Counted from the stretch's first letter, positions 7,381 to 64,000 are shown. The stretch is DNA of 64,000 nucleotides from Vampirovibrio sp. (GCA_024998755.1 JACEUU010000002.1:76783-140782); one strand, 5' to 3'. Numbers and translations are program-made. The notes: a model not told the origin generated them from the sequence alone.

Positions 7381-7406
7381 CAGTTGCTTTGGAGTTTTTT
7401 CCTCTT

Positions 7407-12431: not shown

Positions 12432-12468
12432 CCGTCGAAGTTTGGTCGCTTCGACGGTTTTTTATTTT
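12432..12468 (+). terminator. Hairpin plus T-tract (ccgtcgaag-tttggtcg-cttcgacgg-tttttt), part of direct-repeat module B.
   Basis: Perfect 9-bp stem followed by a T-run. A near-identical copy lies at 14942-14978. Confidence 0.45.
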
Positions 12469-12554
12469 GAGATGGTTGGGTTTAATTCTCGGTACATTTA
12501 ACGTATACTAATAATTGCCGTATTTACTCTCTGTTGTTAGAAAAGATAATCCTT

Positions 12555-14630: not shown

Positions 14631-14941
14631 AACTTATCTAAAAATATAAAAACAAGCAATTTATTGGTATAGATTGTTTTTATTACTATGTGAGCGATAC
14701 ACACGCCGCCCACAAAAACCGCTTCCTTGCTACACAGTCTGTTTTGGGTTTACCCACCAGCCGTGGTTATCTGGTTTTTGATGAACTACTGGTCGGCACT
14801 TTTGAAGAAGCGTTTACTGGAAGACGAACGCTTTTTCATTCCTTTCTATTTCGCTACACGCCCCTGCCATTTGTTAAATTTACCTGAAAAAAGAGAGAGA
14901 GAAAAAAAGTGCCAATTTGGTCTTTGGTCTTTTTTTCCATA

Positions 14942-14978
14942 CCGTCGAAGTTGGTCGCTTCGGCGGTTTTATTTTTTG
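14942..14978 (+). terminator. Hairpin plus T-tract (repeat module B'), downstream of lpxC and abutting the purQ 3' end.
   Basis: ccgtcgaagttggtcgcttcggcggttttatttttt. Confidence 0.45.
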
Positions 14979-14982
14979 AATA

Positions 14983-15732: not shown

Positions 15733-15750
15733 TTTGGGTCGATTCCTATT

Positions 15751-16800
15751 CTAAGCTTGAAGCGATTCGAGTGATTCAAGGCAATAGGTTTCAATCACCA
15801 AGTTGGCTAGTAAACTATCACACATTTGTAGGCAATAGGCTTGGGCTTGCACTCGGTTGGTGGCTTGTAGCTGAATTTCAAAGCGTTTGCCTGCTTTTAC
15901 TCGTTGTACGGTGGGAAAACCGTGGGTTTGCAATGCTTCCGTAATGGCTCGGCTTTCAGGATGCAACACGTTTGGTTTGTATTGCACTTGCACGGTAGCA
16001 AAATACGTTACCAATGGCGATTCTACCGTTGCTTCTTGCGTTTTCAAATTAATAGGGCTAGCGGAAAGCACTTGGGTTAAGCGGTTTTCCACCGTGCTGT
16101 AGGCGGTGTTAATATCCCCTAAATCTAACCGAAAAACGTCTTTATCTAGCACTTGCCCTGTGGTAGCATCTCTTAAGCGGAAGTTGTCAGGGCTCATTTC
16201 ATCAGCTATTTTTAACTGACCGTTGGCGTTTAACCCCATTTCCAACTTGTAGTCTGCACAATCAATGTTGCAGGCGGAAAATAAGGCTAAAAACGAATCA
16301 TTCACGGCTAGGGCGATATGCTTAATTTGGTCGATGGTTACCCCTGTTGGCAACAAGCCGAGTGTGTTGATGGCGTCGTCTGGCAAGGCGGGGTCGTTTA
16401 ATTCGTCGCTTTTGTAGAAGAATTCGACGATGGGTTGTTTTAGTTTTTCACCTTCTTTAAACAGAGGGATTCTTTTGGGCAGGCTACCGAGGGCGATGTT
16501 GCGTACCACAATTTCGATGGGCAACATGGCGAGTGCTTCGTATACTAGCTGGTTGGGTTCAGCCCCTTTGCCAATGTAGCAGGTGGCTAGCCCTTGGGCT
16601 TCTAGGTAGGTGAAGAGTTGGGCGGTAATGTTGGCGTTCAATGCCCCTTTGCCAGCAATTTCTTCGCTTTTTTGGGCGTTGAAGGCGGTGGCTCTGTTTT
16701 TGAAGGTGGCTAATAGCTGGTTGGCTTGCCCTGCTATGGGCGATAAAATTTTGGTTTTGCCTTCACGGCTGGGGGCGGTTGTTATTGTGGCGGTGGTCAT
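15751..16800 (-). CDS. purC-purS: Fused SAICAR synthetase (PurC) and FGAM synthase PurS subunit.
   Basis: N-terminal ~250 aa align to PurC (EGKTK, MLPIEIVVRNIALGSLPKR, DYKLEMGL, SPDNFRLRD). The C-terminal ~85 aa align to PurS (VTYFATVQVQYKPNVLHPES...CDSLLANLVIETY). There is no stop between the two parts, and purQ follows directly. Confidence 0.7.
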   Translation of the reverse strand: MTTATITTAPSREGKTKILSPIAGQANQLLATFKNRATAFNAQKSEEIAGKGALNANITAQLFTYLEAQGLATCYIGKGAEPNQLVYEALAMLPIEIVVRNIALGSLPKRIPLFKEGEKLKQPIVEFFYKSDELNDPALPDDAINTLGLLPTGVTIDQIKHIALAVNDSFLALFSACNIDCADYKLEMGLNANGQLKIADEMSPDNFRLRDATTGQVLDKDVFRLDLGDINTAYSTVENRLTQVLSASPINLKTQEATVESPLVTYFATVQVQYKPNVLHPESRAITEALQTHGFPTVQRVKAGKRFEIQLQATNRVQAQAYCLQMCDSLLANLVIETYCLESLESLQA

Positions 16801-16899
16801 TGTGTGGGGTCTTTCTGTGGCGTGGCGGTTGGTTTTATCCATTGAATGCCGTTATTATACCGCTAATGTATTTTGGTTTCAATCGATGGGTTTTGGGCG

Positions 16900-17217
16900 T
16901 TGCGGTTTTCAACCGCCGTTGCCCCCTGCTTCGCACTCAACCCCGCCTTTCCCTCACCCTAGCCCTCTCCCAGAGGGAGAGGGGACGGTAAACCTAGGTA
17001 AACGGCGGGTTTTCGCCCTATGGGTGGGGCAACTAACGCTTTATTGCCCCCTCTCCCGCTGGGAGAGGGCTGGGGTGAGGGTTTTTAGAAACGGGAGGGT
17101 TTGAAACCCTTCCCTACACAATAGCCTAAATCTCGTCATGTTGAGCGTAGTCGAAACATCCCCCCAGACGCTAAGGAGATTCCTCGGCTACGCTCGGAAT
17201 GACAAAACACGCTATTT
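16900..17217. repeat. Cluster of family-2 GC-rich palindromic repeats, including the gtcatgttgagcg...gaatgacaaaacacgctattt module.
   Basis: ccctctccc-aga-gggagaggg and ccctctcccgctgggagagggctggggtgagggttttt match 2437-2478. The terminal module matches 28697-28773 and 54476-54567. Confidence 0.5.
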
Positions 17218-17314: not shown

Positions 17315-18476
17315 TGAAGTTACGGAAAAAGGGCAAGGTAAAATAGAAGGGACATTATTCCACCTCTCATAGGATACCCCACCCCCATGACTACCTTTGC
17401 CGACATCCAAATTCAACAAGCCACCCCCACTCACAAATTCCTAGAGGAAATGAACCAAACCCTACCATGGCAACTATTTGAAACCATCCTCAAAACACAC
17501 ATCCACCACAAACCCAACGGCAGACCACCCTACAAACGCCTACTACTGCTCAAAATGAACCTCCTCAAAATATGGTTCAATCTCTCCTATGAACAAACCG
17601 AATTTCAATGCCACGACAGACTCTCCTTCCGAAAGTTTCTCGGCTTCTCCTTAGAATCCCCCATCCCTGAAGCCACGACACTCGAAAACTTCCAACACGA
17701 ACTGCAAAACACCCCAGCCCAAGAAGCCCTTTTCTTAGCCTTAGACACCTTCTTCCAAGAGAACAACCTCATTCTTAAAGAAGGCAACTTGGTAGATGCC
17801 ACCTTTATTAAAGCCAATAGCAAACAGAGAAAAAAGCCTGAAGACCAGAGCGACCCTGATGCCACTTATGGCTACAAAGGCTTTGGTTACAGTGCCACGG
17901 TTAATGTGGATGCTAAAAGCAAGTTGATTCGCAAGGTGGTTGTTACTGGTGCCAATGTGCATGACAGTCAGAGTTTACTGCCTGTACTGGTGGGCGATGA
18001 GCAGACTGTTGGTGCGGATAGTGGGTATGTGGGTAAGGAGAAGGATTTGAAGGCGTTGGGGATACAGCCGAGGATTATTAAGCGTCGTGTTCGGGGTAAG
18101 CAGCATGAACCAACGCCTGAGTTGACGGCTTCGCAGAAGCGGTTTAATGGGTTGGTTTCTAAGGTTCGGGCAAGAGTGGAGCATGTGTTTGCGGGTTGGA
18201 AGACGGTGTTTAAGAAGGTTCGTGTGTCTTGTCGTGGGTTAGTGCGTGTTTCTGCGGAGATTTTGGGCTTGGCATTTGGGTATAATTGTCGTCGGTATGG
18301 TTTTTTGGTGAGGAGGGGGGTAGGTTTTAGTGGATTCTTGTATGGTTTTTAGGTAATTATGATCCGAAAAGAGTGGAAACAAGGGGTATTGTTCTGTTTT
18401 TTGAGCATTTTTGGTTGAATTTTATTAAAAAACACTCACTACTCCCACCTGCACACCCTTATTCCGTAACTTCATT
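17315..18476 (+). mobile_element. IS5-family insertion sequence, copy 1 (~1.16 kb) with TIR tgaagttacgg...ccgtaacttca.
   Basis: The whole transposase is duplicated at 19961-21122 (inverted) and again at 63446 onward. The flanks tta|IS|tta suggest a 3-bp target-site duplication. Confidence 0.8.
17387..18352 (+). CDS. IS5-family DDE transposase (321 aa).
   Basis: DDE_Tnp_1-like organisation. Identical protein copies are at 20085-21050 (-) and 63518 onward (+). Confidence 0.8.
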   Translation: MTTFADIQIQQATPTHKFLEEMNQTLPWQLFETILKTHIHHKPNGRPPYKRLLLLKMNLLKIWFNLSYEQTEFQCHDRLSFRKFLGFSLESPIPEATTLENFQHELQNTPAQEALFLALDTFFQENNLILKEGNLVDATFIKANSKQRKKPEDQSDPDATYGYKGFGYSATVNVDAKSKLIRKVVVTGANVHDSQSLLPVLVGDEQTVGADSGYVGKEKDLKALGIQPRIIKRRVRGKQHEPTPELTASQKRFNGLVSKVRARVEHVFAGWKTVFKKVRVSCRGLVRVSAEILGLAFGYNCRRYGFLVRRGVGFSGFLYGF

Positions 18477-18499
18477 AATAAAAAGGGCAAGGTTTTTCA

Positions 18500-19270
18500 A
18501 TGGAAAAATATCCAGTAAAAGGCGAAGTGGATAGAATTAGTTTTTTAGATCAATTAACCACTGAAGAACTCAGTCTATTTCATCAAAATGGCACCCTGTT
18601 AACCATGAAAAAAAACGAACCGCTTGATTTGGATGACCCCAGCCACAAAAACAGTGCTTTTTTAGTAACTGAAGGCTTTGTTAAATTAACCACACTAAAC
18701 CTTGAAGGTAAAAAATTTTCGCTCAGCTTATTGCAAACAGGAGATTTGTCTGATTGGTTCTACAACCAAACTGGTGAAGAAAAGCCCTTCTTACAAACTG
18801 GGCATTGTAAGTTTTTAGAATCTATTACTGGCGTTTCGCAAGTCTTACGAATGAATGAAACGGTCTTTCAAGACCTGTTAGATAAAAAGCCCTCCCTCTA
18901 TGTAACCTTATGACGCGTAATGCAATGTAGAGTTTACACCGTGCAACGCCAATTAAGCGATGTTGTTTTTAAAGATGTACACGCCAGAATAGCCCAAACC
19001 TTGTTAGATATGGTGTTCCATTATGCGGAACTTTGCCCTTATGCCTTTGGCGTTGTAAGAGATGTTTGCCTAACCCACCAAGAAATTTCTGAATTGATTG
19101 GGGCTTCAAGACCTGTAACCTCATTAGCGTTGAACGATTTTAGTAGGGCTGATTTAGTTCATAAACACGACCGTTTTTTATGTCTGCAAAATATACCTGG
19201 TTTAGAAATAGTTGCTCAAGAAGGGTATCAAGCCCTTAAAAAAATAAGTAGTGCCTTGGTTGTTAGCTAG
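18500..19270 (+). pseudogene. Crp/Fnr-family transcriptional regulator interrupted by an in-frame TGA at 18914-18916 (cNMP-binding half 18500-18913, HTH half 18920-19270).
   Basis: The two ORFs are in the same frame, 6 nt apart. The first has the beta-roll cNMP-binding fold; the second has the Crp-type HTH (HQEISELIGASRPVTS). TGA is a genuine stop elsewhere in this window (48863-48865). Confidence 0.6.
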
Positions 19271-19388
19271 CTAACAGATATGTGTGAAACAATCTGTTAC
19301 GATAAGTTTAACGAGTTCGGAAAAAAGTATTTTTTCAGTTCGTTTGTTTGTTATCCCTCTTAGTTTCTACTTTTGGAGTATTGAATTC

Positions 19389-19508
19389 ATGAATCTTTCT
19401 ATCGCTAAATTGGCATTAGTTGCCGCTGTTATGTTACAAGGTGCAAGTTTCGCTAACCCTGCTAACACAGATATGTTCCAAATGACCGAAGCCACCAATA
19501 TGTCTTAA
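19389..19508 (+). CDS. Small secreted peptide: a Sec signal peptide plus 18 aa. It continues in frame past a TAA stop into a Cys/Lys-rich segment ending at 19631.
   Basis: GGAG lies 11 nt upstream of the ATG. MNLSIAKLALVAAVMLQGASFA is a classic signal peptide. The in-frame continuation is SNTLIANKKCGSGSCGGKETTKKCAAKKCAAKKCGASEKK*, followed by a terminator hairpin. Confidence 0.45.
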   Translation: MNLSIAKLALVAAVMLQGASFANPANTDMFQMTEATNMS

Positions 19509-19649
19509 TCAAACACACTCATTGCTAACAAAAAATGTGGTTCTGGCTCTTGTGGTGGTAAAGAAACAACCAAGAAATGTGCGGCTAAAAAGTGTGCAGC
19601 TAAAAAATGTGGTGCTTCTGAAAAGAAATAATCGAACCCCTTTCGTTAC

Positions 19650-19690
19650 AGGCGGCTCTGCAAAAGAGCCGTCTGTTTTAAAGATTATTG
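19650..19690 (+). terminator. Rho-independent terminator candidate after the Cys-rich frame.
   Basis: aggcggctct-gcaaa-agagccgtct hairpin followed by gtttta. Confidence 0.45.
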
Positions 19691-19699
19691 CTTCGGACT

Positions 19700-19925
19700 A
19701 TGATGGATGCGTTAGGGGGACTGGCGTCAGCCCCCCCTAACAACCCCCCACCGCTTAAGGGGAAAGGTGGCATTAGCATGCGTCCTCCCCCCTTAAGAAT
19801 CCCCCCTCCCTACCGCTAAGGGCTGACTTGTTTACACGCACGTTGAAAACAGGCTTGACCGGAAGCTAGAAGCTCCCTAATTGGTCTGCTTCACTACGTT
19901 CGCACCAGCCTATTTCCAACTGGGT
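19700..19925. repeat. Family-4 composite repeat; inverted copy of 4495-4690.
   Basis: See the 4495-4690 entry. It is rich in G6-7 and C6-7 tracts. Confidence 0.45.
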
Positions 19926-19960
19926 ATGATTTAAAACTAAAAATCATAAGAAACAGTTCA

Positions 19961-21122
19961 AATGAAGTTACGGAATAAGGGTGTGCAGGTGGGAGTAGTG
20001 AGTGTTTTTTAATAAAATTCAACCAAAAATGCTCAAAAAACAGAACAATACCCCTTGTTTCCACTCTTTTCGGATCATAATTACCTAAAAACCATACAAG
20101 AATCCACTAAAACCTACCCCCCTCCTCACCAAAAAACCATACCGACGACAATTATACCCAAATGCCAAGCCCAAAATCTCCGCAGAAACACGCACTAACC
20201 CACGACAAGACACACGAACCTTCTTAAACACCGTCTTCCAACCCGCAAACACATGCTCCACTCTTGCCCGAACCTTAGAAACCAACCCATTAAACCGCTT
20301 CTGCGAAGCCGTCAACTCAGGCGTTGGTTCATGCTGCTTACCCCGAACACGACGCTTAATAATCCTCGGCTGTATCCCCAACGCCTTCAAATCCTTCTCC
20401 TTACCCACATACCCACTATCCGCACCAACAGTCTGCTCATCGCCCACCAGTACAGGCAGTAAACTCTGACTGTCATGCACATTGGCACCAGTAACAACCA
20501 CCTTGCGAATCAACTTGCTTTTAGCATCCACATTAACCGTGGCACTGTAACCAAAGCCTTTGTAGCCATAAGTGGCATCAGGGTCGCTCTGGTCTTCAGG
20601 CTTTTTTCTCTGTTTGCTATTGGCTTTAATAAAGGTGGCATCTACCAAGTTGCCTTCTTTAAGAATGAGGTTGTTCTCTTGGAAGAAGGTGTCTAAGGCT
20701 AAGAAAAGGGCTTCTTGGGCTGGGGTGTTTTGCAGTTCGTGTTGGAAGTTTTCGAGTGTCGTGGCTTCAGGGATGGGGGATTCTAAGGAGAAGCCGAGAA
20801 ACTTTCGGAAGGAGAGTCTGTCGTGGCATTGAAATTCGGTTTGTTCATAGGAGAGATTGAACCATATTTTGAGGAGGTTCATTTTGAGCAGTAGTAGGCG
20901 TTTGTAGGGTGGTCTGCCGTTGGGTTTGTGGTGGATGTGTGTTTTGAGGATGGTTTCAAATAGTTGCCATGGTAGGGTTTGGTTCATTTCCTCTAGGAAT
21001 TTGTGAGTGGGGGTGGCTTGTTGAATTTGGATGTCGGCAAAGGTAGTCATGGGGGTGGGGTATCCTATGAGAGGTGGAATAATGTCCCTTCTATTTTACC
21101 TTGCCCTTTTTCCGTAACTTCA
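19961..21122 (-). mobile_element. IS5-family insertion sequence, copy 2, inverted relative to copy 1.
   Basis: Reverse complement of copy 1 end to end. Its flanking triplets do not match each other (ata vs ttt). Confidence 0.8.
20085..21050 (-). CDS. IS5-family DDE transposase (copy 2).
   Basis: Identical 321-aa product. Confidence 0.8.
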   Translation of the reverse strand: MTTFADIQIQQATPTHKFLEEMNQTLPWQLFETILKTHIHHKPNGRPPYKRLLLLKMNLLKIWFNLSYEQTEFQCHDRLSFRKFLGFSLESPIPEATTLENFQHELQNTPAQEALFLALDTFFQENNLILKEGNLVDATFIKANSKQRKKPEDQSDPDATYGYKGFGYSATVNVDAKSKLIRKVVVTGANVHDSQSLLPVLVGDEQTVGADSGYVGKEKDLKALGIQPRIIKRRVRGKQHEPTPELTASQKRFNGLVSKVRARVEHVFAGWKTVFKKVRVSCRGLVRVSAEILGLAFGYNCRRYGFLVRRGVGFSGFLYGF

Positions 21123-21138: not shown

Positions 21139-21524
21139 AGATGCAATCATTATTGCGTGTTACTTTTGCTGGTTTTCAGCCAGCAGTTTTGGGTACCAAG
21201 CATCAGGCTACTGGCGTTCAGCAACCCAGTGCTGTTGGGCAGTTAGCTCAAACACAAACCACAGATGTTTTAGGTGCTATGCCACACTACCGTCCATTAC
21301 CTATAGGGGTACGTTCTGGTAATAATGTAGACAAACTAGTTAGGCAGGAACTAGCTGAACTTGGAAAAGATATTGAAGCTGGTGAACGAAAAATCGCGCA
21401 ACTTGAAGAAGCTGTACAGAAAGATCATCTATCAGAGGAGCTTATTACTCGGGTAGAAGAGGTGATAGCAGACTTACAAGAAGAATTGGGAACAAAGAAG
21501 GTACAAAAGGACAGACTAAGTTAA
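21139..21524 (+). CDS. Hypothetical protein, paralog 1 of a pair that shares a near-identical 60-aa N-terminal module. Its C-terminus is coiled-coil-like.
   Basis: Nt 21139-21320 are ~97% identical to 21858-22040. The track ORF start at 21003 lies inside IS copy 2, so the real start is taken as the ATG at 21139. Confidence 0.5.
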
Positions 21525-21857
21525 CTGGTTCCTAACCAAATTGTGGAACGTTCATTACTGCTAGCTTTTACCGAAAATATTAGCTTTAAATCATATACAG
21601 TTGAAGATAGACTGGTACAAGAGTAGCGAATCAGACCAAAATGAATTCATAGGGGCAGATGCAATCCACCCCCTACAGTTGGTTAAATTTTTAAGCTACT
21701 AGACCTCATGAACACTGCTTACTTGAATTCGCTTTGAGGATTTTTATTTACAAAAAATTATTTTACTGCTAAAATAAATTTTTAATATGACTTTACTTAA
21801 CTAATGATTCGCTTTTAACTTAATCTTTCTATAAAAAATGATGTAAGGGACTAAGTA

Positions 21858-54571: not shown

Positions 54572-55870
54572 TTAATTGATAGGTGGCTTTAAATATTTCT
54601 TGCCCAACAACGCTTCGGGCATAAAGGTTTGAGGCACGTCAGGGGCATCATGCGAATAAACGTACCCAGCCCCATGCCCTAAGGTTTTCGCCCCCGAACA
54701 ATGCCCAGACCGCAAATGGAGCGGCACAGGGAACGCCTTGCCACCCGTGGTAACATCCGCCAACGCTGCATCCAACGCCTTATAAGTCGCATTGCTTTTA
54801 GGGGCTTTCGCCACATACGCCGTAACCATCGCCAACGGAATACGGGCTTCAGGCATACCCAGTTGTTCGACGGCTTGTAAGGCGTGCGAAGCCAACACAA
54901 AGGCTTGAGGGTCTGCCAACCCAACATCTTCCGCCGAACAAACCAACAACCGCCTAGCAATAAACCGAGGGTCTTCACCGCCAGCTATCATTTTCGCAAG
55001 CCAGTAGAGTGCCGCATCAGCATCAGACCCCCGAAGGCTTTTTTGAAACGCCGAAGCGTGGTCAAAATGGTCGTCTGCCCCTTTGTCATACGAAAGTCGT
55101 GTTTGGTGCTGGGCTAAGGTTTGAAAGACTTCCAACGTTAGTAATATTTCCGTCCCTTTTTCTGATTTTTCAACCCGAGGAGCCACCCAAAAGCCTGCCT
55201 CTAATAACGTCAACAACGCCCTTGCATCGCCATTAGCGTACTGCACCAAAAATTCTAGGGCATCTTTTTGCAGCAGACAAGTGCCTTGGTTGGCAGCATT
55301 TAAGGTGTGGAGCGATTTCTTCACCAGCTGACGCAAATTTTCGGTGGATAAAGCTTCCAGCTTAAATAACAATACCCGAGAAAGGAGGGCTTTGTTGACC
55401 GAAAAATAAGGGTTTTCCGTGGTGGCACCCAATAGTACGAACGTCCCTACTTCCACATGGGGGAGTAACGCATCCTGCTGAGATTTGGAAAATCGGTGGA
55501 TTTCATCGAGGAATAAAACCGTGCGTTGTTGCTGGTATGCCAAGCGTTGGGTGGCATCTTCCACGCAAGCCCGAATCTCCTTGACGCCGGCGGTAACGGC
55601 ACTGAGCGAAACCCAAAAATAACCTGATTTTTGCGATAAAAGCCGAGCCAGCGTGGTTTTTCCCACCCCTGGTGGCCCCCATAGAATGAGGGAGCGTAAT
55701 TGCCCTGAATTAGCCAGTTGCCGTAGCGGAGCGGTTTCTCCGTGTAGGAGGGATTCTTGCCCCAACACATCTGCTAGGGTTTTGGGGCGTAGCAAATCTG
55801 CCAGCGGTCGAGCAGTGAGGGAACAATCATCCGTGGCGGCTTGGGTTTGCTGGTAGCTAAATAAATCCAT
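54572..55870 (-). CDS. rarA: Recombination factor RarA/MgsA (AAA+ ATPase).
   Basis: Walker A GPPGVGKTT, sensor motifs and the MgsA C-terminal domain, ~430 aa. Confidence 0.8.
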   Translation of the reverse strand: MDLFSYQQTQAATDDCSLTARPLADLLRPKTLADVLGQESLLHGETAPLRQLANSGQLRSLILWGPPGVGKTTLARLLSQKSGYFWVSLSAVTAGVKEIRACVEDATQRLAYQQQRTVLFLDEIHRFSKSQQDALLPHVEVGTFVLLGATTENPYFSVNKALLSRVLLFKLEALSTENLRQLVKKSLHTLNAANQGTCLLQKDALEFLVQYANGDARALLTLLEAGFWVAPRVEKSEKGTEILLTLEVFQTLAQHQTRLSYDKGADDHFDHASAFQKSLRGSDADAALYWLAKMIAGGEDPRFIARRLLVCSAEDVGLADPQAFVLASHALQAVEQLGMPEARIPLAMVTAYVAKAPKSNATYKALDAALADVTTGGKAFPVPLHLRSGHCSGAKTLGHGAGYVYSHDAPDVPQTFMPEALLGKKYLKPPIN

Positions 55871-55948
55871 GGGGTGGTGTAAGCTTTATCGTTTTTTTTG
55901 AGAAGCATTTAACCTTTAGTCTACTACAAACAGGTCAAGTCATTTTAA

Positions 55949-56497
55949 TTAGGACAGATGCTTCTTTTTCTTTTTTGACGATTTGTTTTTTTTAGGGTCA
56001 TAGAACCATAAAAGGAGACTAAAAAAGCCCACCACAACGCTAGCCCCAACTACTAAACAGAAATCAAACAGAGCATCTTTCTCGCCTCCCTCTGTATAAG
56101 GATCTAAAAATGCGTGCAGGTTATCATCGCTAACGTAAACCGTAAAAGAAGCGTTGCTAGCAAACCTTGTTTTCAACATCGTTTCAGCTTCATCTTTTTC
56201 AATACGATGCCTAATAACTACTTTTGTTTTTTTGCAGGCTTGTATGGCATTAGACGTACCGTCAATTTTTAACACTACGCAAGGGTTATAATAAGTACGA
56301 GAATGTTTGCTACCAACCGTAATTTTGGATATAGACTCTCCTACTTTAGTGAATGAGGTAATTTGCTTAAAATACTTTGAGTCTTTTTCTAGGATATACT
56401 TTTGAAACAGTGTGTAGCTAAAGTAAATCAAAATAACCGCAAATAATGCAGACCATAAGAAGAATCCTTTAAAAACCATTTTCTCTGTTATTTTCAT
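55949..56497 (-). CDS. Small membrane protein (DUF3592-like: TM, beta domain, TM) with a poly-Lys tail.
   Basis: Hydrophobic segments at both ends and a KKKKKH C-terminus. Confidence 0.4.
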   Translation of the reverse strand: MKITEKMVFKGFFLWSALFAVILIYFSYTLFQKYILEKDSKYFKQITSFTKVGESISKITVGSKHSRTYYNPCVVLKIDGTSNAIQACKKTKVVIRHRIEKDEAETMLKTRFASNASFTVYVSDDNLHAFLDPYTEGGEKDALFDFCLVVGASVVVGFFSLLLWFYDPKKNKSSKKKKKHLS

Positions 56498-56513
56498 ACC
56501 TTCAAATCCTTCT

Positions 56514-57464
56514 TTAATACGCAGGGATTGCCCTTCGCACGAATGCCCGAAACTGCCAGTGGCGTTGGGTGATTTCCAACGTCAACCATTCATCATTCTT
56601 GGCAAAACTATGAAACGTGGGGCGGGCATAGGTTTCATTCTTCCTAGCACGGAAATTTTCCACAACCGTCAACTTCCCCCACTGCTGGTTATAAGTTGAA
56701 TACTGTTGCGTCGGCACTGGCACGGTCTCAAACCGCTTTTCCCCAGCAATAAAGGTTTTTTCATCAATAGGAATCACCGCCATCACCTTGCCCATGTTAA
56801 TGAGGATTAAGACATCAATCGGTTTCTGCATCGCCTTTTGCTGAGCCAAATTTTTCGGCTGATGGTTCTTCGCCTCACTCAACCCTTTGGGTTTATAAAT
56901 GGGCGATTCCACTTGCCGTGCCCCTGCCCCTTGCTTCATCGCTTGGGTTTGTTGGGCATTGCTTTTAGCTACATCCGCTTTCAGCTGATTCAAATTCGTG
57001 TTGAGTGAGCCATCTTGCCACTGCCCCAACTTCACTTGGTAAAACCCCTTAGGTACAATCGTCTTGCCTAGTTTAACATCCGTAACCAACATCCCTAACG
57101 CATAAGGCGTGTAATTATGACGAAGGTATTCGGCGGAAGCTTCTAAATCCAGATCTTCAAAATGGCGTTTGTCCGGCAACCAGTATTCTTGAATACGATC
57201 ACCTTCTTTAATACCCGACTTCATTTCGCTACTTTTTTCGTCTTTCCAGTCATACTTATACCCCAAGGTTCCCCTGTTATAGGGTTCATCTTCCCAAAAA
57301 TCGGGCTTTTGAAAAATCGGGTCGACTGCTTCATTATCTGTCGAAAAACAAACCCCTTGCCCCCAAACAATCATGCTAAAAAGCAGAAAAAATCCAGCCC
57401 CTAGCAACCGCCAGCTTGTGGCAGTTCGGCAGGTTTTCCGGTTAGTTGTTGCCGATTTTGCCAT
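56514..57464 (-). CDS. Hypothetical secreted protein.
   Basis: Signal-peptide-like N-terminus. The start is uncertain because the ORF overlaps the rpe 3' end by 64 nt. Confidence 0.4.
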   Translation of the reverse strand: MAKSATTNRKTCRTATSWRLLGAGFFLLFSMIVWGQGVCFSTDNEAVDPIFQKPDFWEDEPYNRGTLGYKYDWKDEKSSEMKSGIKEGDRIQEYWLPDKRHFEDLDLEASAEYLRHNYTPYALGMLVTDVKLGKTIVPKGFYQVKLGQWQDGSLNTNLNQLKADVAKSNAQQTQAMKQGAGARQVESPIYKPKGLSEAKNHQPKNLAQQKAMQKPIDVLILINMGKVMAVIPIDEKTFIAGEKRFETVPVPTQQYSTYNQQWGKLTVVENFRARKNETYARPTFHSFAKNDEWLTLEITQRHWQFRAFVRRAIPAY

Positions 57465-58204
57465 GCTATAGGCAATTCCTTGGTTAAAAACGGAATGGTG
57501 GGTTTGCTACCCTTCTTACTGCCTAGGGGTGAACGCAACTGGGCGATGGTTTCTGCAGGATTAGGGCTATTAAACACGGCAGAACCAGCCACCAACGTAT
57601 TAGCCCCCGCTTTTATAATATCGGTGCAATTTTGCACACCTACACCGCCATCCACTTGAATGTGGAGAGGGGCTAAGGCTGGGTTACGATGCGTTTGAAT
57701 CAACGCCGTCAGTTTTATAAGTTTTTCCAGCGTTTGTGGAATAAACGATTGTCCGCCAAAGCCTGGATTGACGCTCATTAGCAGAATTAAATCAACCTCG
57801 TTAATCACATCTTCCAACACGGAAACAGGAGTAGCAGGGTTGAGCGAAACACCCGCTAAACAACCCAACGCTTTAATGGCTTGAAGCGTGCGGTGCAAAT
57901 GGGGGCAAGCTTCCCAATGGACGGTTAATGTATCAGCACCCGCTTTGGCGAAGGCTTCAAGGTAGCGATCAGCGTTTTCAATCATTAAATGGACGTCAAA
58001 GGGCAAAGTGGTTTCCTTGCGAAGATGGGCAACAATAGGGGCTCCAAGCGTCATGTTGGGAACAAAATGTCCGTCCATTACATCCACATGAATCCAATCA
58101 GCTCCGTTGGCTTCAAGCTGTTTGAGTGCATCACCCAAATAGGCAAAATCTGCCGATAAAATGGAGGGAGCTATATAGATTGGCGTTGCAGAGGTGGCAA
58201 ACAT
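57401..58204 (-). CDS. rpe: Ribulose-phosphate 3-epimerase with a ~45-aa C-terminal extension.
   Basis: SILSADF, HVDVMDGHFVPN and the metal-binding His/Asp pattern. Confidence 0.75.
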   Translation of the reverse strand: MFATSATPIYIAPSILSADFAYLGDALKQLEANGADWIHVDVMDGHFVPNMTLGAPIVAHLRKETTLPFDVHLMIENADRYLEAFAKAGADTLTVHWEACPHLHRTLQAIKALGCLAGVSLNPATPVSVLEDVINEVDLILLMSVNPGFGGQSFIPQTLEKLIKLTALIQTHRNPALAPLHIQVDGGVGVQNCTDIIKAGANTLVAGSAVFNSPNPAETIAQLRSPLGSKKGSKPTIPFLTKELPIAWQNRQQLTGKPAELPQAGGC

Positions 58205-58294
58205 AGTGGAAACTTCCTGAAAGGTTTTGAAAAAAAGCTGAATATCATCTATAATACTACAAATTGCTACCAGTAGAAAGAATTAACAATTTAT

Positions 58295-59008
58295 ATGGCA
58301 ACACTTTGGCAAAAAACAAAAGGGGTTACGTTAGACACCTTGGGCAATACGCTCATTCCTGCTTTTTTGAATTGGGTTAAAGGTATCTGGGAAAATCATC
58401 CGGTTGAAATTCACCCTGAAACGCAGGCGTTGATTGATGCAGGGAAACCGTTGGTTTTTATGGTTTGGCATGATGAAATGTACACGTTGTTACACAAATT
58501 TTGGCAAACTGCGTTACCTAGCATTCCGCATATTTTGATTTCTCAAAGCCGAGATGGTGATTTTATGACGGCAGCGGCTAGCAAAATTGGGTTTCCACAT
58601 ACCATTCGGGGTGCACACGGGCGGGGTGGGGCAAAAGCCGCCATGGCGATTTTGACGCATTTACGCACGCCTAATCAATCGTTACTTTGTTTGGTAGATG
58701 GGCCTCGGGGGCCGAGGCATGAGGTGAAGGAAGGTATTGTTCAGCTGGCACAAAAAACGAACGCTCCGCTGATTCCTGTAACCGGTTGGGTTTCGATATT
58801 GGCTTTTTGTCTGAATCGGTCTTGGGATAAATTCCAAATTCCATGGGTTTTTTGCCGATTTAAGTTGTGCTTAGGACAACCCATCTACGCCACAAAAACC
58901 GAGGAACAATCTGTAGAACAATCAACGCAATTGGTTACTTCAGCGTTTGTTAGCTTTTGTGAGGGTGTGCAAACTACTAACCCGAAAACGCGTCGAATTA
59001 TTCGCTAG
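58295..59008 (+). CDS. DUF374-type lysophospholipid acyltransferase-like protein.
   Basis: The HDE/MVWHDEMY-like region is typical of DUF374 proteins found near Kdo-transferase loci. Confidence 0.45.
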   Translation: MATLWQKTKGVTLDTLGNTLIPAFLNWVKGIWENHPVEIHPETQALIDAGKPLVFMVWHDEMYTLLHKFWQTALPSIPHILISQSRDGDFMTAAASKIGFPHTIRGAHGRGGAKAAMAILTHLRTPNQSLLCLVDGPRGPRHEVKEGIVQLAQKTNAPLIPVTGWVSILAFCLNRSWDKFQIPWVFCRFKLCLGQPIYATKTEEQSVEQSTQLVTSAFVSFCEGVQTTNPKTRRIIR

Positions 59009-59766
59009 ACAGCTTTTTCAGGTCTTAACATTAAAAACGACCCTTGGCGTTGCCAATCGCCCGCCCGAAATGACCAAAACCACTCCGGATTCGTATCCGT
59101 AGCAAACGGTAGTATTTCAACATTTTCAACGCCAATAGCACCCAGTTGTAAAGCGTTAACCATTGGCACACTCGCGTGCCATTTATTGGTTTCTTCATTA
59201 ATTCTTGCCCAAAATAATTGATCCGTTTTTTCAGGTAACGTAGACATTAACTGTTCTATTACTTCTTCACCTACTTCAAATCCATCAAAGCTTAAGGCAG
59301 GCCCTATAACGGCAATCAGTTCCGTTACATCTGCCCCTTGAGCAACCAGATGCTTCGCCCCTTTTGCAGCTAAACTTTGTGCCGTGCTTTTCCACCCACA
59401 ATGCAACACCATACCTTGATGAATATCCGGAGCGTAAAGCATAACGGGCGTACAATCTGCACTGAAAACAACCGCTGGTAGTTGAGGTTGGTCTAACCAA
59501 ATACCATCTGCTTCAGCGTGAACCGTTTTTGATGCTTGGAACCATTGGTCTCCGTGTACTTGGGTAGGGTAACGCAAGGTAGAAATATCGGCTGGAATGC
59601 CTAAATTCCCTAACCAATAAGCTCTGTTTTCGATGAGTTCATCTGCACTTAATTCAATACCTGCAACGGGGGTAGGTTTAACTGAAAAGCCATAAGCCAG
59701 TTTGTCGGCATAAGCATCAAACAATTTTGATCTGAGTAGTTCTGCATAATTGTATTCCATTAACAA
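59005..59766 (-). CDS. pgeF: Peptidoglycan editing factor / purine nucleoside phosphorylase YfiH (PgeF; laccase-domain, DUF152).
   Basis: ADCTPV ... HCGWKS motifs corresponding to the YfiH Cys/His triad. Confidence 0.6.
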   Translation of the reverse strand: MLMEYNYAELLRSKLFDAYADKLAYGFSVKPTPVAGIELSADELIENRAYWLGNLGIPADISTLRYPTQVHGDQWFQASKTVHAEADGIWLDQPQLPAVVFSADCTPVMLYAPDIHQGMVLHCGWKSTAQSLAAKGAKHLVAQGADVTELIAVIGPALSFDGFEVGEEVIEQLMSTLPEKTDQLFWARINEETNKWHASVPMVNALQLGAIGVENVEILPFATDTNPEWFWSFRAGDWQRQGSFLMLRPEKAV

Positions 59767-60449
59767 ACATCCTTAATCATGGTTTTTTTGATGGTAATAT
59801 TGGGGCTTTGCAAATATAAAGGGGCTAACTGTTGCCATGTAATAGGGGCATTTTCAGCCAAGCTGATAGCCTCTAACGCTAGTGGTGATAATGCTTCAAC
59901 GGTAGCATAAGAAAATCCCAGTTTGTCGACATGGGTACTCAACGTATCATTCAAGATAAATTGTTCTTTTTTCTGAATATTAACCCAGTCATCCATCAGT
60001 ATAAACTGAGGTTTTTCCCACCCAGCTTGGGGCAACCAAGTGGCGGTGTAAAGCCTGCCCTGTTTAGCATCCAACACTACTGTAAGGCTTGTTTTTTCTT
60101 CAAGGCAACCCGCTAGTTTAGCTTGAAGCCGAAGTCGTTCAAAAACGGTGATAGGGGTAATTACCAGCGAAGGTATCCATTGCCCGAGTGTTTTAACCGT
60201 CGCCAACCCAGCCCGAAGCCCCGTAAAACTGCCAGGCCCTACACAGACGGTTAATTGGGTTACTTCCGTTAGGGCAACTTTAGCCACGGTGCAGGCTTCT
60301 TGAAACAAAGGCACTAGCAACGAAGAATGAGACCGTTGGCTACTAAGCGGGGTTTCATACCGAAAAAGCCACTGGTTGGTTGTCTTGTTTTTTAGCCCAA
60401 ACAATAATTCGAAGCCGGTGGTATCAATCACCCATTGATAGGCATTCAT
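59760..60449 (-). CDS. tsaB: tRNA t6A37 biosynthesis protein TsaB (YeaZ).
   Basis: GPGSFTGLRAG motif and inactive Kae1-like fold. Confidence 0.7.
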   Translation of the reverse strand: MNAYQWVIDTTGFELLFGLKNKTTNQWLFRYETPLSSQRSHSSLLVPLFQEACTVAKVALTEVTQLTVCVGPGSFTGLRAGLATVKTLGQWIPSLVITPITVFERLRLQAKLAGCLEEKTSLTVVLDAKQGRLYTATWLPQAGWEKPQFILMDDWVNIQKKEQFILNDTLSTHVDKLGFSYATVEALSPLALEAISLAENAPITWQQLAPLYLQSPNITIKKTMIKDVC

Positions 60450-60952
60450 AATGCCAACCTCTGATGGCTGAACCAGTCATATTCCCGACTTTCTTCAGTC
60501 GATTCCTTTATTTGCAGATGATGCGAAATTAAAGGCTGAAAGGCTTCTGCAACCACACTTGCCCATTCGGCTAAAATGAGTGTGGGCACTTGGGCTTGTA
60601 ATTCTAGCAATTCTTCTACTAGCCAATTATTACCACCACTGGTTGTTTCTTTTTCACTGAGCCGATAAAAATCGACGTGTAAAACCTGCGTAATACCTGT
60701 TGGGTTAGCTGGTAGCGTATATTGGTTGAAATACACGTAAGTAGGGCTGGTCATTCGGGTTTGAATGCCTAGAGCTTGCCCAATAGTACGAATGAGCGTG
60801 GTTTTCCCTGCCCCTAGCCCACCTTCAATACTGATGATGCTGTTGGGTTGTGCTACTTGAACTAACGCCTCGGCTAAAGAAGGTAGCTGGCTTTCTGTTA
60901 GTGTGAAAGTTTGTTGGCTGGGTAGCTTGGATTCAAGAAAGGGGCTTAACAT
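60446..60952 (-). CDS. tsaE: tRNA t6A37 biosynthesis ATPase TsaE (YjeE).
   Basis: P-loop GGLGAGKTT and a size of ~168 aa. Confidence 0.7.
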   Translation of the reverse strand: MLSPFLESKLPSQQTFTLTESQLPSLAEALVQVAQPNSIISIEGGLGAGKTTLIRTIGQALGIQTRMTSPTYVYFNQYTLPANPTGITQVLHVDFYRLSEKETTSGGNNWLVEELLELQAQVPTLILAEWASVVAEAFQPLISHHLQIKESTEESREYDWFSHQRLAL

Positions 60953-61169
60953 GGCAGATTGTTTCTAGTGGGGCTTCATACCTACCCAGTTTACCCTAAA
61001 CCAATAGGATGTTCAATGTTGAACCGTAGTACTTAAGTGTTTAGAAATATGTGCCAATTGTAGTTCTACAAGTGGTGTAAAAGCACCTATAACTTTTGGG
61101 TAAGTAGAGTCATTGTAGTTTTGCATTGCAACTCTTAACCCTGTAGCTTTAGAGCCTAATTTTTCTATT

Positions 61170-61313
61170 AGACCTCTTGCATGACTCGATATCTGGGGCA
61201 TCTTCGTTGTCATTTACGGTACTCGAATTCTTATGTACTTCCGTGTACACCTCAAATTCTGCGTTCCTCATTCCTAGAATCTGCACCCACCTATTGAGTC
61301 ATGCAAGAGGTCT
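61170..61313. repeat. MITE-like element (family 3), an inverted copy of 47481-47668.
   Basis: TIR agacctcttgcatgact / agtcatgcaagaggtct. Its interior matches the reverse complement of 47600-47660. Confidence 0.5.
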
Positions 61314-61651
61314 ATTGTTAAACAAAACGGAGAAATATTAACACCAGAAATAGCCAATGCTTCTTCAGGGCCTTTCAACAGTTTGTTCAAACAGTCTGGG
61401 CTTGAAAGACTCAACTTTTTTGCTGCGTTATTTAATACTTCAATATCAGTAGAATTAACGAGCCATGCCACCATTTCTTAGGTTATGAAAGGTTTGAGGA
61501 AAGGGGTCTTCTTTTTTATTGTTGACTTAAACGAGGGTGGAACACTAACAGAAGGGCGAATAGAACATAATATAACCCTAATATAAAAGTGAATTTTTAA
61601 CGTTTGTTGTTTGAATTTAGCTTAAACATCCCCACATAACCATGGTATTTA

Positions 61652-62521
61652 TTAAACTGCAACAGACCCCACCACAATGCCAAGCGGATGCAACTGCACA
61701 CATAAAAACGATTGAAACCCTGCTTCAATAGCTGGTGTTAGTGCCATGCCATAAGCTGAACACGCTTCTTCCAACAAGACACGATAAGACTTTTTTTCAC
61801 CATGCGACTGTAACGCCAAACTTAAAAATTGCTGCACCACCCCTGAAACTTTGAAAAATCGGCAAGAAAAATCTGAATCTCTGTAAACCCATAGAATTAA
61901 AGGGTCTGCAGCGGCTGCCCATTGTGTTGGCAAATCCGTTTCAGCTTCTTTACACTGCTTTAGTTGCTCCACTATTAAATCAACCGCATAAAAACTAGAA
62001 AAGCTAGAAGAAGCTGGGTTTAAAACAGGACTTGCCGTCTCTAAATCATCTGTTAAACAAGGATTCTTTAAAATTTGAGCTTCGGCTTTCGAAATGGAGG
62101 TGGTGTCTTTTAGCAGCTGGGCTTCCAATTGTTCATAGGTTGCTAAATCTTCCAAAAAAGGAAAGGCTTCAGTCAAAGCTTCCTGTTCCGATAAAAAAGA
62201 AGGGAACGCCTTTACCACATCAAACAACTGATAAGATTGCGGCGGATGTGCCTGCAAATAAGCTGAAACCAACCCATCCCATCGGTCAGAAACGAATTGA
62301 TAAGTGTAGGGGTAAATGGCTTCTAGGGCTTCTTGATGGTTGGCGAAAACCATCCACTGGTATTGTTTTAATCGGTCTTCTTCTAGTTGAAAAAAGGCTT
62401 CAACTAACGGCGTTTTAGGCTGGTTCTTTAGGGCTTCAAACGAAGAAATTTCATGCGAAAAAGGCTGAAAGGTAATTTCTACAAATAGGGCTTGAAAGTC
62501 TTTTAGTGAAGGTGTATTCAT
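61652..62521 (-). CDS. DUF2063-family protein (MbnC / BufC / TglI-like partner of DUF692 enzymes).
   Basis: N-terminal region YQWMVFANHQEALEAIYPYTYQFVSDRWDGLVSAYLQAHPPQSYQL matches the DUF2063 signature (xVYRNNxxxSLxxALxxxYPxTxxLxGxxxFxxLAxAYxxAHP). Confidence 0.65.
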   Translation of the reverse strand: MNTPSLKDFQALFVEITFQPFSHEISSFEALKNQPKTPLVEAFFQLEEDRLKQYQWMVFANHQEALEAIYPYTYQFVSDRWDGLVSAYLQAHPPQSYQLFDVVKAFPSFLSEQEALTEAFPFLEDLATYEQLEAQLLKDTTSISKAEAQILKNPCLTDDLETASPVLNPASSSFSSFYAVDLIVEQLKQCKEAETDLPTQWAAAADPLILWVYRDSDFSCRFFKVSGVVQQFLSLALQSHGEKKSYRVLLEEACSAYGMALTPAIEAGFQSFLCVQLHPLGIVVGSVAV

Positions 62522-63405
62522 GACTTACCTCCAACTTTGCTTTTAACTGAAGCTAAAGCCACTGTTTTAACCTGTTGTAACTCCGTCATTAATGTTTTAA
62601 ACGGGGGAATGTTTGTATCTCGTTCTAATAAAACGCCTTTTAAATTAGGGCACTGCGGATAAATAGCCCCTAGTAAGGCAAAAACCTCATCGCAAATGGG
62701 TTCGCCGTGGGTGTCAATTAAAAACGATTCGGTGGCTAAATGCCCTGCAATATGAATTTCCACGACACGTTCTAGGGGTAAGCCAGCAACAAAATCTTCG
62801 ACATTTTCCTGATGATTTTGGCAGTTCACGAAAATATTATTCACATCAAGCAGAATGCCACAATCGGCGGTTTCAACAATGGTTCGCATAAAATCCGCTT
62901 CGGTATACTGGTTGATACTGGGAAAACGGGCGTAGGTTGAGGCATTTTCAATTAAAAACGGACGCTGAAATTTATCTTGTAAAACTTTGATTTTATCTGC
63001 ACAAACTTGAACGGCTTCACGGGTGAAGGGTAGGGGGATTAAATCATTTAAATACCGCCCATTAACCGAGCTAAAACTGAGGTGGTCGCTAAACCACAGT
63101 GGATTGATTGTTTCAAATAATGCGGTTAATTCAGCTAAATAAGTAGGGTTAATAGGGTCTACACTACCAAGAGAAAGACCGACACCATGCGAAGTAATGG
63201 GGTAGCCTTTGGCAATAAGGGCTTCTAGGTTTTTGGCGGTTTGCCCGCCTTTACCCATAAAATTTTCTGGGATGAGTTCAATCCATTCCAGCAAGGTAGG
63301 TGGTTGGGCGGGGGGTAGAATATCGTCATAATACTCATTTTGCATGCCAATACCAAACCCGATATTGGGGATATTTTTAATAGATTTAAAGAAGGGTGTA
63401 GACAT
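62518..63405 (-). CDS. DUF692-family TIM-barrel di-iron enzyme (MbnB / BufB / TglH-like RiPP maturase).
   Basis: WIELIPENFMGKGG...HGVGLSLGS.DP...WFSDHLSF......IPLPFTREAV...LIENASTY are all hallmark DUF692 blocks. It overlaps the DUF2063 gene by 4 nt (ATGA). Confidence 0.7.
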   Translation of the reverse strand: MSTPFFKSIKNIPNIGFGIGMQNEYYDDILPPAQPPTLLEWIELIPENFMGKGGQTAKNLEALIAKGYPITSHGVGLSLGSVDPINPTYLAELTALFETINPLWFSDHLSFSSVNGRYLNDLIPLPFTREAVQVCADKIKVLQDKFQRPFLIENASTYARFPSINQYTEADFMRTIVETADCGILLDVNNIFVNCQNHQENVEDFVAGLPLERVVEIHIAGHLATESFLIDTHGEPICDEVFALLGAIYPQCPNLKGVLLERDTNIPPFKTLMTELQQVKTVALASVKSKVGGKS

Positions 63406-63445
63406 AAGTTTTTAGTGGCTTCAACTATTTAGGGAGTTTTATATT

Positions 63446-64000
63446 TGAAGTTACGGAAAAAGGGCAAGGTAAAATAGAAGGGACATTATTCCACCTCTCA
63501 TAGGATACCCCACCCCCATGACTACCTTTGCCGACATCCAAATTCAACAAGCCACCCCCACTCACAAATTCCTAGAGGAAATGAACCAAACCCTACCATG
63601 GCAACTATTTGAAACCATCCTCAAAACACACATCCACCACAAACCCAACGGCAGACCACCCTACAAACGCCTACTACTGCTCAAAATGAACCTCCTCAAA
63701 ATATGGTTCAATCTCTCCTATGAACAAACCGAATTTCAATGCCACGACAGACTCTCCTTCCGAAAGTTTCTCGGCTTCTCCTTAGAATCCCCCATCCCTG
63801 AAGCCACGACACTCGAAAACTTCCAACACGAACTGCAAAACACCCCAGCCCAAGAAGCCCTTTTCTTAGCCTTAGACACCTTCTTCCAAGAGAACAACCT
63901 CATTCTTAAAGAAGGCAACTTGGTAGATGCCACCTTTATTAAAGCCAATAGCAAACAGAGAAAAAAGCCTGAAGACCAGAGCGACCCTGATGCCACTTAT
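63446..64000 (+). mobile_element. IS5-family insertion sequence, copy 3, truncated by the window end. Its left end lies 41 bp upstream of the DUF692 gene start.
   Basis: Nt 63446-64000 are identical to 17315-17869. Confidence 0.8.
63518..64000 (+). CDS. IS5-family DDE transposase (copy 3, 3'-partial).
   Basis: Identical N-terminal 161 aa. Confidence 0.75.
   Translation, partial: MTTFADIQIQQATPTHKFLEEMNQTLPWQLFETILKTHIHHKPNGRPPYKRLLLLKMNLLKIWFNLSYEQTEFQCHDRLSFRKFLGFSLESPIPEATTLENFQHELQNTPAQEALFLALDTFFQENNLILKEGNLVDATFIKANSKQRKKPEDQSDPDATY

Follow-up and report, generated by a model that had tools for sequence, protein, structure and literature searches.

We analysed a stretch of 64,000 nucleotides from Vampirovibrio sp. 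(GCA_024998755.1 JACEUU010000002.1:76783-140782), called the window here. Its right end carries two genes for the maturation of a ribosomally synthesised and post-translationally modified peptide (RiPP). The genes encode an MNIO (DUF692) maturase and a DUF2063/HvfC-type partner protein, and a preliminary description of the window had taken them for an orphan pair. Our reading, to which we give a probability of about 80%, is that an IS5-family insertion sequence (IS) split an ordinary oxazolin/bufferin-type cluster, that the displaced regulator and precursor genes are now pseudogenes and that the cluster is decaying. Most likely, the intact MNIO-HvfC pair is a remnant which has not yet been mutated, rather than an orphan enzyme that serves a hidden purpose. 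The observation is genuine, though of an ordinary kind. Vampirovibrio is a member of the Vampirovibrionales, Candidatus Melainabacteria.

The MNIO gene (62518-63405, minus strand; 295 amino acids (aa), hvfB/bufB-like) and the partner gene (61652-62521, minus strand; 289 aa) are both intact and share an ATGA overlap. The assignment of the two genes to DUF692 and DUF2063 in the preliminary description is correct, and both proteins are full length and lie above the Pfam family thresholds that it had proposed as a check. The MNIO protein matches MbnB_TglH_ChrH (Pfam: PF05114) with 302.4 bits against a cut-off of 25, and its residues 17-282 cover positions 2-261 of the 263 profile positions. The N-terminal part of the partner matches DUF2063 (Pfam: PF09836) with 47.0 bits (cut-off 27.2), while the C-terminal NGO1945_C match (Pfam: PF22106) is slightly under its cut-off of 27 with 25.8 bits. 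The partner has the same length as in relatives and belongs to the DUF2063/HvfC-type partner proteins (PME type 1). All ligand motifs of the MNIO are present (SHG, SDHLS, IENAS, LDVNN, HIAGH, DTHGE and LLERD) in an alignment with PDB 3BWW, a DUF692 protein whose entry carries no further name and which is the nearest solved structure. The assignment of the His, Asp and Glu residues of these motifs as iron ligands is taken from PMC11252979. For the partner protein, no PDB match was found by sequence. The MNIO protein is 100% identical to NCBI MCS6266311.1, which is annotated as 'MAG: DUF692 domain-containing protein [Vampirovibrio sp.]', where MAG stands for metagenome-assembled genome.

We further compared both proteins with the NCBIfam equivalog models. 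The MNIO narrowly misses the BufB model (NF050167) with 288.3 bits against a cut-off of 310, stays below the HvfB model (NF003818; 256.6 against 360) and reaches only 52.1 bits against the cut-off of 325 of the MbnB model (TIGR04159). The sole NCBIfam match of the partner is HvfC (NF050145), with 74.2 bits against a cut-off of 142 over positions 20-235 of the 237 profile positions. Judged by these scores, the MNIO is nearest to the BufB and HvfB models and far from MbnB, and the comparison with MbnB/MbnC in the preliminary description does not hold. By family assignment, MNIO and HvfC are predicted to act as B (oxidase) and C (substrate-binding partner) in a cluster of four to five genes of the HvfABC/oxazolin-bufferin type.

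The intact form of this cluster is found in relatives. We used the contigs L001-L009, which were found via homologues of the MNIO protein. The MNIO gene of L001 is 92% identical to that of the window on the nucleotide level and 93% on the amino acid level, and those of L008 and L009 are about 88-90% identical in nucleotides. On the amino acid level, L002 and L003 share 82%, L004 and L005 55% and L007, a Vampirovibrionales MAG, 52%. Eight related loci could be read far enough upstream, and in all 8 a small Cys-rich precursor gene lies directly 5' of the MNIO gene on the same strand. The statement that such pairs are usually preceded by a small precursor in the same orientation is thereby supported, and the suggested comparison of synteny revealed no relative without an adjacent Cys-rich open reading frame (ORF) among these loci. 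Where more of the upstream DNA is visible (L002, L004/L005, L007 and L008/L009), the gene order is a divergent DoxX gene followed by a Crp/FNR-type regulator, the precursor, MNIO and HvfC. The most extended order, in L008 and L009, is MetRS and DoxX, then in the other direction Crp, precursor, MNIO, HvfC, a 235-aa gene, TsaE, TsaB, YfiH, (a 351-aa gene), DUF374 and Rpe. From MNIO onward, L008 corresponds to the reverse of window positions 55110-63425, apart from the 235-aa and 351-aa genes, which are missing from the window. The window itself lacks the arrangement which marks a bufferin/oxazolin-type gene cluster, namely a precursor directly upstream of MNIO-DUF2063 on the same strand with DoxX nearby; DoxX is absent from all 64 kb.

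The missing precursor and regulator are nevertheless present elsewhere in the window. A tblastn search with the precursors of the relatives detected a match at 19389-19628 (E = 1e-41). It belongs to an hvfA-like precursor pseudogene at 19389-19631 on the plus strand, with a putative signal peptide, the KCGSGSCGG anchor and three KKCxA repeats. A Crp/FNR-type regulator pseudogene precedes it at 18500-19270 on the plus strand, identified by its HTH_Crp_2 domain and by homology to the L002 regulator, to which it is 86% identical over 253 aa if read through a stop codon. This regulator-precursor block of 1.1 kb fits exactly between two IS copies and is now found 43.5 kb from MNIO-HvfC on the opposite strand. 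The preliminary description had listed precursor, DoxX and regulator as lacking. This is true of 61652-64000, and for DoxX of the whole window, but not for the precursor and the regulator.

The spacer between precursor and MNIO is divided in the same manner. Its proximal part, including a G+C-rich repeat element, was identified by alignment to the L001 spacer and extends from 19632 to 19962 on the plus strand, up to IS copy B. The distal 40 bp, which form the 5' leader of MNIO (63406-63445, minus strand), correspond by alignment to the final ~40 bp of the spacer in L001, and the match reaches as far as the IS junction. When 19632-19962 is joined to the reverse complement of 63406-63445, the product aligns colinearly with the whole 368-bp spacer of L001 (520-887). 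In this uninterrupted spacer, the insertion point of the IS lies 40 bp before the MNIO start and 328 bp after the precursor stop. As the spacer halves rejoin colinearly, the IS entered the spacer and the precursor was not replaced.

A hairpin with a U-tract follows the precursor stop at 19648-19682 on the plus strand and is a candidate terminator or attenuator between the precursor and the maturase genes. It has a minimum free energy of -23.8 kcal/mol (z = -5.3), and a hairpin with a U-tract stands at this place in all lineages; that of L008 is equivalent, and that of L002 differs in sequence. A hairpin between precursor and enzyme genes is the usual way to over-express a precursor relative to its enzymes. 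Two further observations concern the same region. The G+C-rich repeat of about 250 bp in the spacer (window 19690-19945, L001 590-845) is absent from L008 and L002, whose spacers are only 78-82 bp long, which indicates that the spacer was struck by a mobile element before the IS arrived; partial copies of the repeat are found at 4456-4562 and 21580-21639. In L001 (1-98), the homology to the window upstream of the precursor ends at the regulator stop codon (TAGCTAACAGATA...), and the DNA further upstream is unlike the 3' end of the regulator. L001 may have its own rearrangement upstream of the precursor.

Three copies of the IS were detected in the window. Copy A (17315-18474, plus strand) is complete and ends about 25 bp upstream of the start codon of the regulator. 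Copy B (19963-21122, minus strand) is complete as well, and its right end abuts the proximal spacer half. Copy C (63446-64000, plus strand) is cut off by the window edge, and its left end abuts the MNIO leader. This left end (TGAAGTTACGG..., also read as TGAAGTTACGGAA...) starts exactly at 63446. Position and family had been given correctly in the preliminary description, whereas the distance to the ATG of the DUF692 gene is 40 bp (63406-63445) and not 41 bp. Copy B is 100% identical to copy A over 1164 bp and copy C at 555 out of 555 positions, so all three copies are identical wherever they overlap; B and C are in inverted orientation. The transposase of 321 aa is of the DDE type, with DDE_Tnp_1 and DUF772 domains, and matches the NCBIfam IS5 model (NF033581) with 233.6 bits (cut-off 140). 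The termini TGAAGTTACGGAA(A/T)AAGGG match at 18 of 19 positions. With a DDE transposase, terminal inverted repeats and multiple identical copies, the element belongs to the IS5 family. Copy B borders the proximal half of the spacer with its right end, and copy C the distal half with its left end, which is the pattern expected of one insertion whose flanks were later separated.

The immediate flanks of the IS are TTA/TTA for copy A and AAT/AAA for the spacer insertion (left end of C and right end of B). The same IS is found, 96.5% identical and in one copy, in a 'Candidatus Melainabacteria' MAG from Lake Pavin (L012 1179-2350), where the flanks do not match. Six contig ends of the Lake Pavin MAG (L014 and L017-L021) also carry a second IS, which shares the 19-bp termini and is about 75% identical in the compared terminal stretch of ~140 bp. 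On sequence comparison, these two related ISs point to a family that has been active across the group. At the junction of copy C and the leader, a possible hybrid outward promoter was read by eye at 63440-63475 on the minus strand, with TTGCCC in the IS end and TATAAA in the leader at a distance of 18; under a stricter scan rule it was not called.

Each of the two displaced genes is interrupted by a premature stop codon. The precursor has an in-frame TAA at codon 40 (19506-19508), where L001, L002 and L008 have TCA. The regulator has an in-frame TGA at codon 138 (18911-18913), derived from TTA, and this residue is Leu in L002 and L008. An alternative genetic code was considered for the in-frame TGA and TAA and ruled out: TGA is also the stop codon of the MNIO gene, within the usual ATGA overlap, and is therefore a genuine stop here. 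An independent ENA metagenome contig of 1500 bp (L023) is 100% identical to window positions 18422-19921, including the junction of IS copy A with the regulator and both stops. As the stops recur in this contig, they are not errors of the present assembly. The truncated products are on public record as the proteins P0124 and P0262. Among about 15 billion public proteins, only truncated products and no intact precursor allele with the diagnostic residues of this strain were found. Protein patterns scanned against genome and metagenome contigs, a 47-nt DNA pattern from the precursor scanned against metagenome contigs and a comparison with a plasmid collection gave no match to the source contig or to sequence past 64000.

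The decay has also reached the maturase in near-identical strains. Four environmental contigs from ENA GROS21-1 samples and two Logan runs (L024-L027; L025 and L023 share a sample) match the window with 99.4-99.9% identity, and all of them begin inside the same IS end, at the same IS/MNIO junction as in the window. In these contigs a G to T change at window position 62949 turns GAA into TAA, which gives MNIO E153* within the IENAS ligand motif, and HvfC carries F76L (window position 62294). In the wild population, three out of four cluster genes are thus already knocked out. Compared with L001, L002 and L008, the dN/dS ratio (non-synonymous to synonymous substitution rates) is 0.05-0.17 in all four genes. 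Neither dN/dS nor the window-specific substitutions in this comparison gave a sign of relaxed selection, with no excess of non-synonymous changes beyond the stops. Low dN/dS and the lack of excess amino acid changes specific to the window indicate that the loss of constraint is very recent, with which the still identical IS copies are consistent.

In sum, the spacer between precursor and MNIO took up an IS5-family element at a point 40 bp ahead of the MNIO start. The regulator-precursor block with the proximal spacer now stands on the other strand at a distance of 43.5 kb, flanked on both sides by further identical copies of the IS. Nonsense mutations have arisen in the regulator, the precursor and, in near-identical strains, the MNIO. 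For the movement of the block, we tentatively favour, at somewhat less than an even chance, a homologous recombination between inverted IS copies that inverted 21123-63445, combined with a second IS-mediated event at copy A. By this route the junctions of copies B and C need no unseen DNA. The flanks on the purCS side and on the 21123 side both abut IS left ends; they are therefore not the two sides of one simple insertion, and at least one real rearrangement took place under any pairing. Several points weigh against our reading of a split cluster and against the inversion as its cause. The inversion needs the further event at copy A, since the DNA left of this copy is not the DoxX side; it is the upstream region of purCS and shows no relationship to the DNA between DoxX and Crp in L008. 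The window stops 555 bp into copy C, and a second copy of the precursor could lie beyond. Target-site duplications do not settle the route: the spacer flanks AAA/AAT agree in 2 of 3 bases, the outer flanks of A and B are TA/TA, and the related complete IS copy in L012 has no clear target duplication. Moreover, MNIO and HvfC are intact here with a readable promoter TTGCCC-18-TATAAA at the junction, and the pair may be expressed.

A composite transposon is a possible, though on balance doubtful, alternative for the movement of the block. Once IS copies had entered on either side of the block, the unit of IS, Crp, precursor and IS (17315-21122) would have moved into the intergenic region between purCS and the gene at 21141-21524, and the original would follow directly after the IS copy that is cut by the window edge, which implies that MNIO-HvfC is merely interrupted, with a precursor about 1.2 kb away. 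This would account for both outer junctions by a single event and for the DNA left of copy A being unrelated to the ancestral DoxX side. Copies A and B face outward with equivalent ends, as in composites of the Tn5/Tn10 type, and the outer flanks share a 2-bp TA/TA direct repeat, like the 2-bp AA/AA of the spacer insertion. A redundant copy of the block would also be free to gain two stops. However, a 2-bp match in A+T-rich DNA is weak, and with a 3-bp duplication the outer flanks mismatch (TTA/TAT). No intact precursor allele of this strain is present in public collections, although the strain was assembled in several samples, and the loss of MNIO in sister strains is more in keeping with a dead cluster than with a functional precursor nearby. 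It is unlikely that the arrangement is a mis-join of the assembly across the identical 1.16-kb IS copies, in which case the real event would be a simple insertion and the 43.5-kb gap an artefact or one of two coexisting inversion isomers. Repeats such as these three copies, identical wherever they overlap, are easily resolved wrongly, every short-read contig of this strain breaks off at an IS junction, and the right flank of B together with the left flank of C form a perfectly ordinary insertion. Yet the source contig, apparently 696 kb long, suggests that long reads spanned the repeats, and the rearrangement implied by the two IS left ends would be needed anyway.

The remaining alternatives concern the fate of the enzymes rather than the route. 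We regard it as improbable, slightly more so than a mis-join, that the pair is still working from a promoter at the junction of IS and leader, either on a precursor encoded in trans or on a different substrate. Both ORFs are intact with all ligand motifs, dN/dS is low, the -35/-10 pair across the junction is plausible, and HvfBC-type enzymes accept truncated and varied substrates (PMC11252979). Against this, the sole precursor homologue in the window is dead as a pseudogene, public data contain no further such precursor for the strain, and E153* in sister strains with the same junction makes selection on the enzyme look relaxed; the low dN/dS mirrors the long shared history and not the recent period. 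Least probable by far, and refuted by the rejoined spacer, is the claim of the preliminary description that the IS sits where the precursor should be, if this is taken to mean that it destroyed or replaced the precursor and left a true orphan pair. The position of the IS directly upstream of MNIO, with no small ORF between them, speaks for this claim, but the insertion maps to the spacer, and the whole precursor and the other 331 bp of the spacer are present at 19389-19962. What stands of the earlier view is that the IS separates the pair from its precursor, with no usable precursor adjacent; nothing was replaced.

We also looked at the surroundings of the displaced block. The segment 17315-21122, an inverted identical IS pair around the Crp and precursor pseudogenes, resembles a composite transposon, with only TA/TA shared by its outer flanks. 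Joining the flanks 17314 and 21123 creates no longer ORF. The close purCS contigs L010 and L011 end in miniature inverted-repeat transposable elements (MITEs) within 290-390 bp, and none of the loci compared spans the 17314/21123 junction. In a further contig of 34.6 kb the neighbours are different. GC skew was tried as a sign of a recent inversion and rejected. The cumulative G-C maximum at 19.7 kb was suggestive at first, and it is uninformative after gene orientation is removed. The strand-independent GC skew is about +0.07 in the left arm (1-17000) and about -0.01 in the right arm (21000-63000), which is not a mirror image. The change near the IS-bracketed block could be a rearrangement breakpoint or a terminus-like switch.

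As had been noted before, a MITE lies downstream of the partner gene. This MITE-like element of 146 bp (61169-61314) has 29-nt terminal inverted repeats (TAGACCTCTTGCATGACTCGATATCTGGG), which are 90% complementary. A second copy of 174 bp at 47496-47669 matches the first, where the number of matches expected by chance is 0, and further copies are found in the relative L011 (164-377 and 2230-2428). The element is small, non-coding and present in several copies with terminal inverted repeats, as is characteristic of MITEs. The 235-aa gene between HvfC and TsaE in L008 (8136-9212; function not assigned) has left no trace in window positions 60953-61651. In its place there are the MITE and two 66-aa ORFs without family matches. 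The ORFs 61274-61474 and 61013-61213, located 3' of the partner gene, were considered as alternative precursors and rejected, as they show no family match and no signal peptide was seen; the first one overlaps the MITE. L011 shares with the window a PurC-PurS protein (80% identity). The fused gene (SAICAR synthetase and PurS) is located at 15751-16842 on the minus strand, and the fusion is common to many Melainabacteria/Vampirovibrionales homologues. Named homologues of purCS likewise place the source of the window in this group.

The precursors of the relatives share a common architecture. The N-terminus resembles a signal peptide (MNLSIAKLALVAAVMLQGASFA, followed by N after the cleavage site), with an n/h/c layout and an A-x-A-like cleavage site, so that by inspection only it is a putative Sec signal peptide. 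It is followed by the invariant anchor A-x-KCG-x-G-x-CGGK and a variable number of Cys repeats, which are of the form KKC[AS]A in close relatives and of the HKCG type in more distant ones. The number of KKCxA repeats varies between close strains, with three in the window (19560-19625) and four to seven in L001, L002, L003, L008 and P0123. This suggests slippage or recombination within the repeat DNA. The NCBIfam model of HvfA (NF050188) aligns end to end with the precursors and gives 18.6-29.7 bits, below its cut-off of 95 (E = 8e-7 to 2e-3). With KKC[AS]A instead of EGKCG repeats, the precursors do not fall under HvfA or Buf_EGKCG-oxazolin. Searching Pfam with them gave no DUF2282 and no match except the low-complexity HC2. 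A profile of the precursor family recovered only 15 clusters from 1.84 billion representatives, one of which is a classical EGKCG oxazolin-type protein (P0274, E = 1e-4).

By analogy with characterised systems, HvfC would dock the precursor, and the iron enzyme MNIO would oxidise the Cys residues of the C-terminal repeats to metal-binding heterocycles of the 5-thiooxazole type. The Sec signal peptide would carry the product to the periplasm, in which peptides of this class act as copper buffers. In H. influenzae, HvfA carries a signal peptide, a C-x4-C pair and AEGKCGEGKCG repeats and is bound by HvfC (PMC11252979). HvfB installs six Cu-binding heterocycles (PMC11252979), which are now assigned as 5-thiooxazoles (bioRxiv 10.64898/2026.07.17.739211). 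Bufferins work as HvfA does and guard against copper in the periplasm, and DoxX is dispensable for their modification (PMC11626156). Crp-type regulators are not mentioned in the MNIO survey PMC12452194.

On present sequence evidence, the intact relatives of the locus are best regarded as an oxazolin/bufferin-type branch in Melainabacteria that has the KKCxA/HKCG repeat and a Crp-type regulator. Precursors of the Melainabacteria clade share the putative signal peptide, an F-Q-x-T-E motif, the invariant KCG-x-G-x-CGGK anchor and strain-variable, Lys-rich repeats with Cys at every fifth residue (KKCxA, HKCG), and they are always paired with a Crp/cNMP-type regulator. A bolder and rather unlikely idea is that they constitute a distinct, undescribed branch of MNIO-made periplasmic metallophores, regulated by cyclic nucleotides or redox state and not by metal-responsive sigma factors, perhaps for another metal or with a polycationic role at the surface. 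Bolder still, the intact MNIO-HvfC pair may have been kept because it acts on another substrate.

For genome mining, the locus shows how scrambling by insertion sequences can make a RiPP maturase pair look like an orphan. Its substrate gene lies 43 kb away, outside the usual neighbourhood of ±10 genes, and is already dead. With regard to evolution, a metallophore cluster is caught in the process of being lost: one IS hit the spacer, and independent nonsense mutations followed rapidly in the regulator, the precursor and the enzyme of sister strains. Since all IS copies are still identical, this sequence of losses falls within a very short time. Furthermore, the non-photosynthetic relatives of cyanobacteria (Vampirovibrionales) are shown to have HvfA/oxazolin-like systems in which the repeat chemistry differs and the regulator is of the Crp type, which is a small range extension. 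The variant of precursor and regulator in Melainabacteria is mildly new, and nothing here will surprise a specialist.

Among the known systems, the locus can be compared with HvfABC/oxazolin of nontypeable Haemophilus influenzae (PMC11252979; bioRxiv 10.64898/2026.07.17.739211), with which it shares the gene set of DoxX, a precursor of ~80-100 aa with a signal peptide of the Sec type (putative in our case), the MNIO and the DUF2063-type partner. The precursors of both have an N-proximal C-x4-C pair and then C-terminal repeats with Cys at every fifth residue. The locus differs in that all three equivalog models are missed (HvfB 257/360, HvfC 74/142, HvfA 19-30/95), in the KKC[AS]A repeat, or HKCG in distant relatives, in place of EGKCG, and in the Crp/FNR-type regulator before the precursor. 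Its host belongs to Melainabacteria and not to Pseudomonadota, and the locus is split and partly pseudogenised.

The bufferins (BufABC(D), including the Caulobacter 'gig' operons; PMC11626156, PMC12452194) have in common with the locus an MNIO to whose BufB model ours is closest (288 vs 310), the DUF2063 partner, DoxX and a precursor with a signal peptide, putative in our case, for export by Sec. The expected chemistry, conversion of Cys to 5-thiooxazole for periplasmic copper buffering, would by analogy be the same. In contrast to the bufferins, the precursor of the locus is not DUF2282 (Buf1) and by look not of the Buf_6/12Cys type, and a Crp-type regulator is found in place of sigma/anti-sigma (NrsF) genes. 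The 'CxxxxC' precursor family (PMC12452194), compared here by its description, is similar in its signal peptide (putative in the locus), the CxxxxC spacing and the neighbourhood of MNIO, DUF2063 and DoxX. It is reported from Pseudomonadati only, with a Lactamase_B_2 gene in about half of the clusters, and neither applies to the locus.

Methanobactin biosynthesis by MbnBC is more distant. The PF05114 superfamily and the Cys-directed oxidation with a partner protein are shared, whereas the score against the MbnB model (52 vs 325 bits), the DUF2063 partner instead of MbnC, the putative Sec signal peptide of the precursor instead of a leader peptide and the lack of mbn transport or regulatory genes set the locus apart. 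In its rearrangement, the locus resembles IS-mediated inversions and composite transposons (IS5 family; Tn5/Tn10 type) by the inverted identical IS copies around cargo and by the separated and inverted flanks of one insertion, and differs from them in that the block has no clear target-site duplication.

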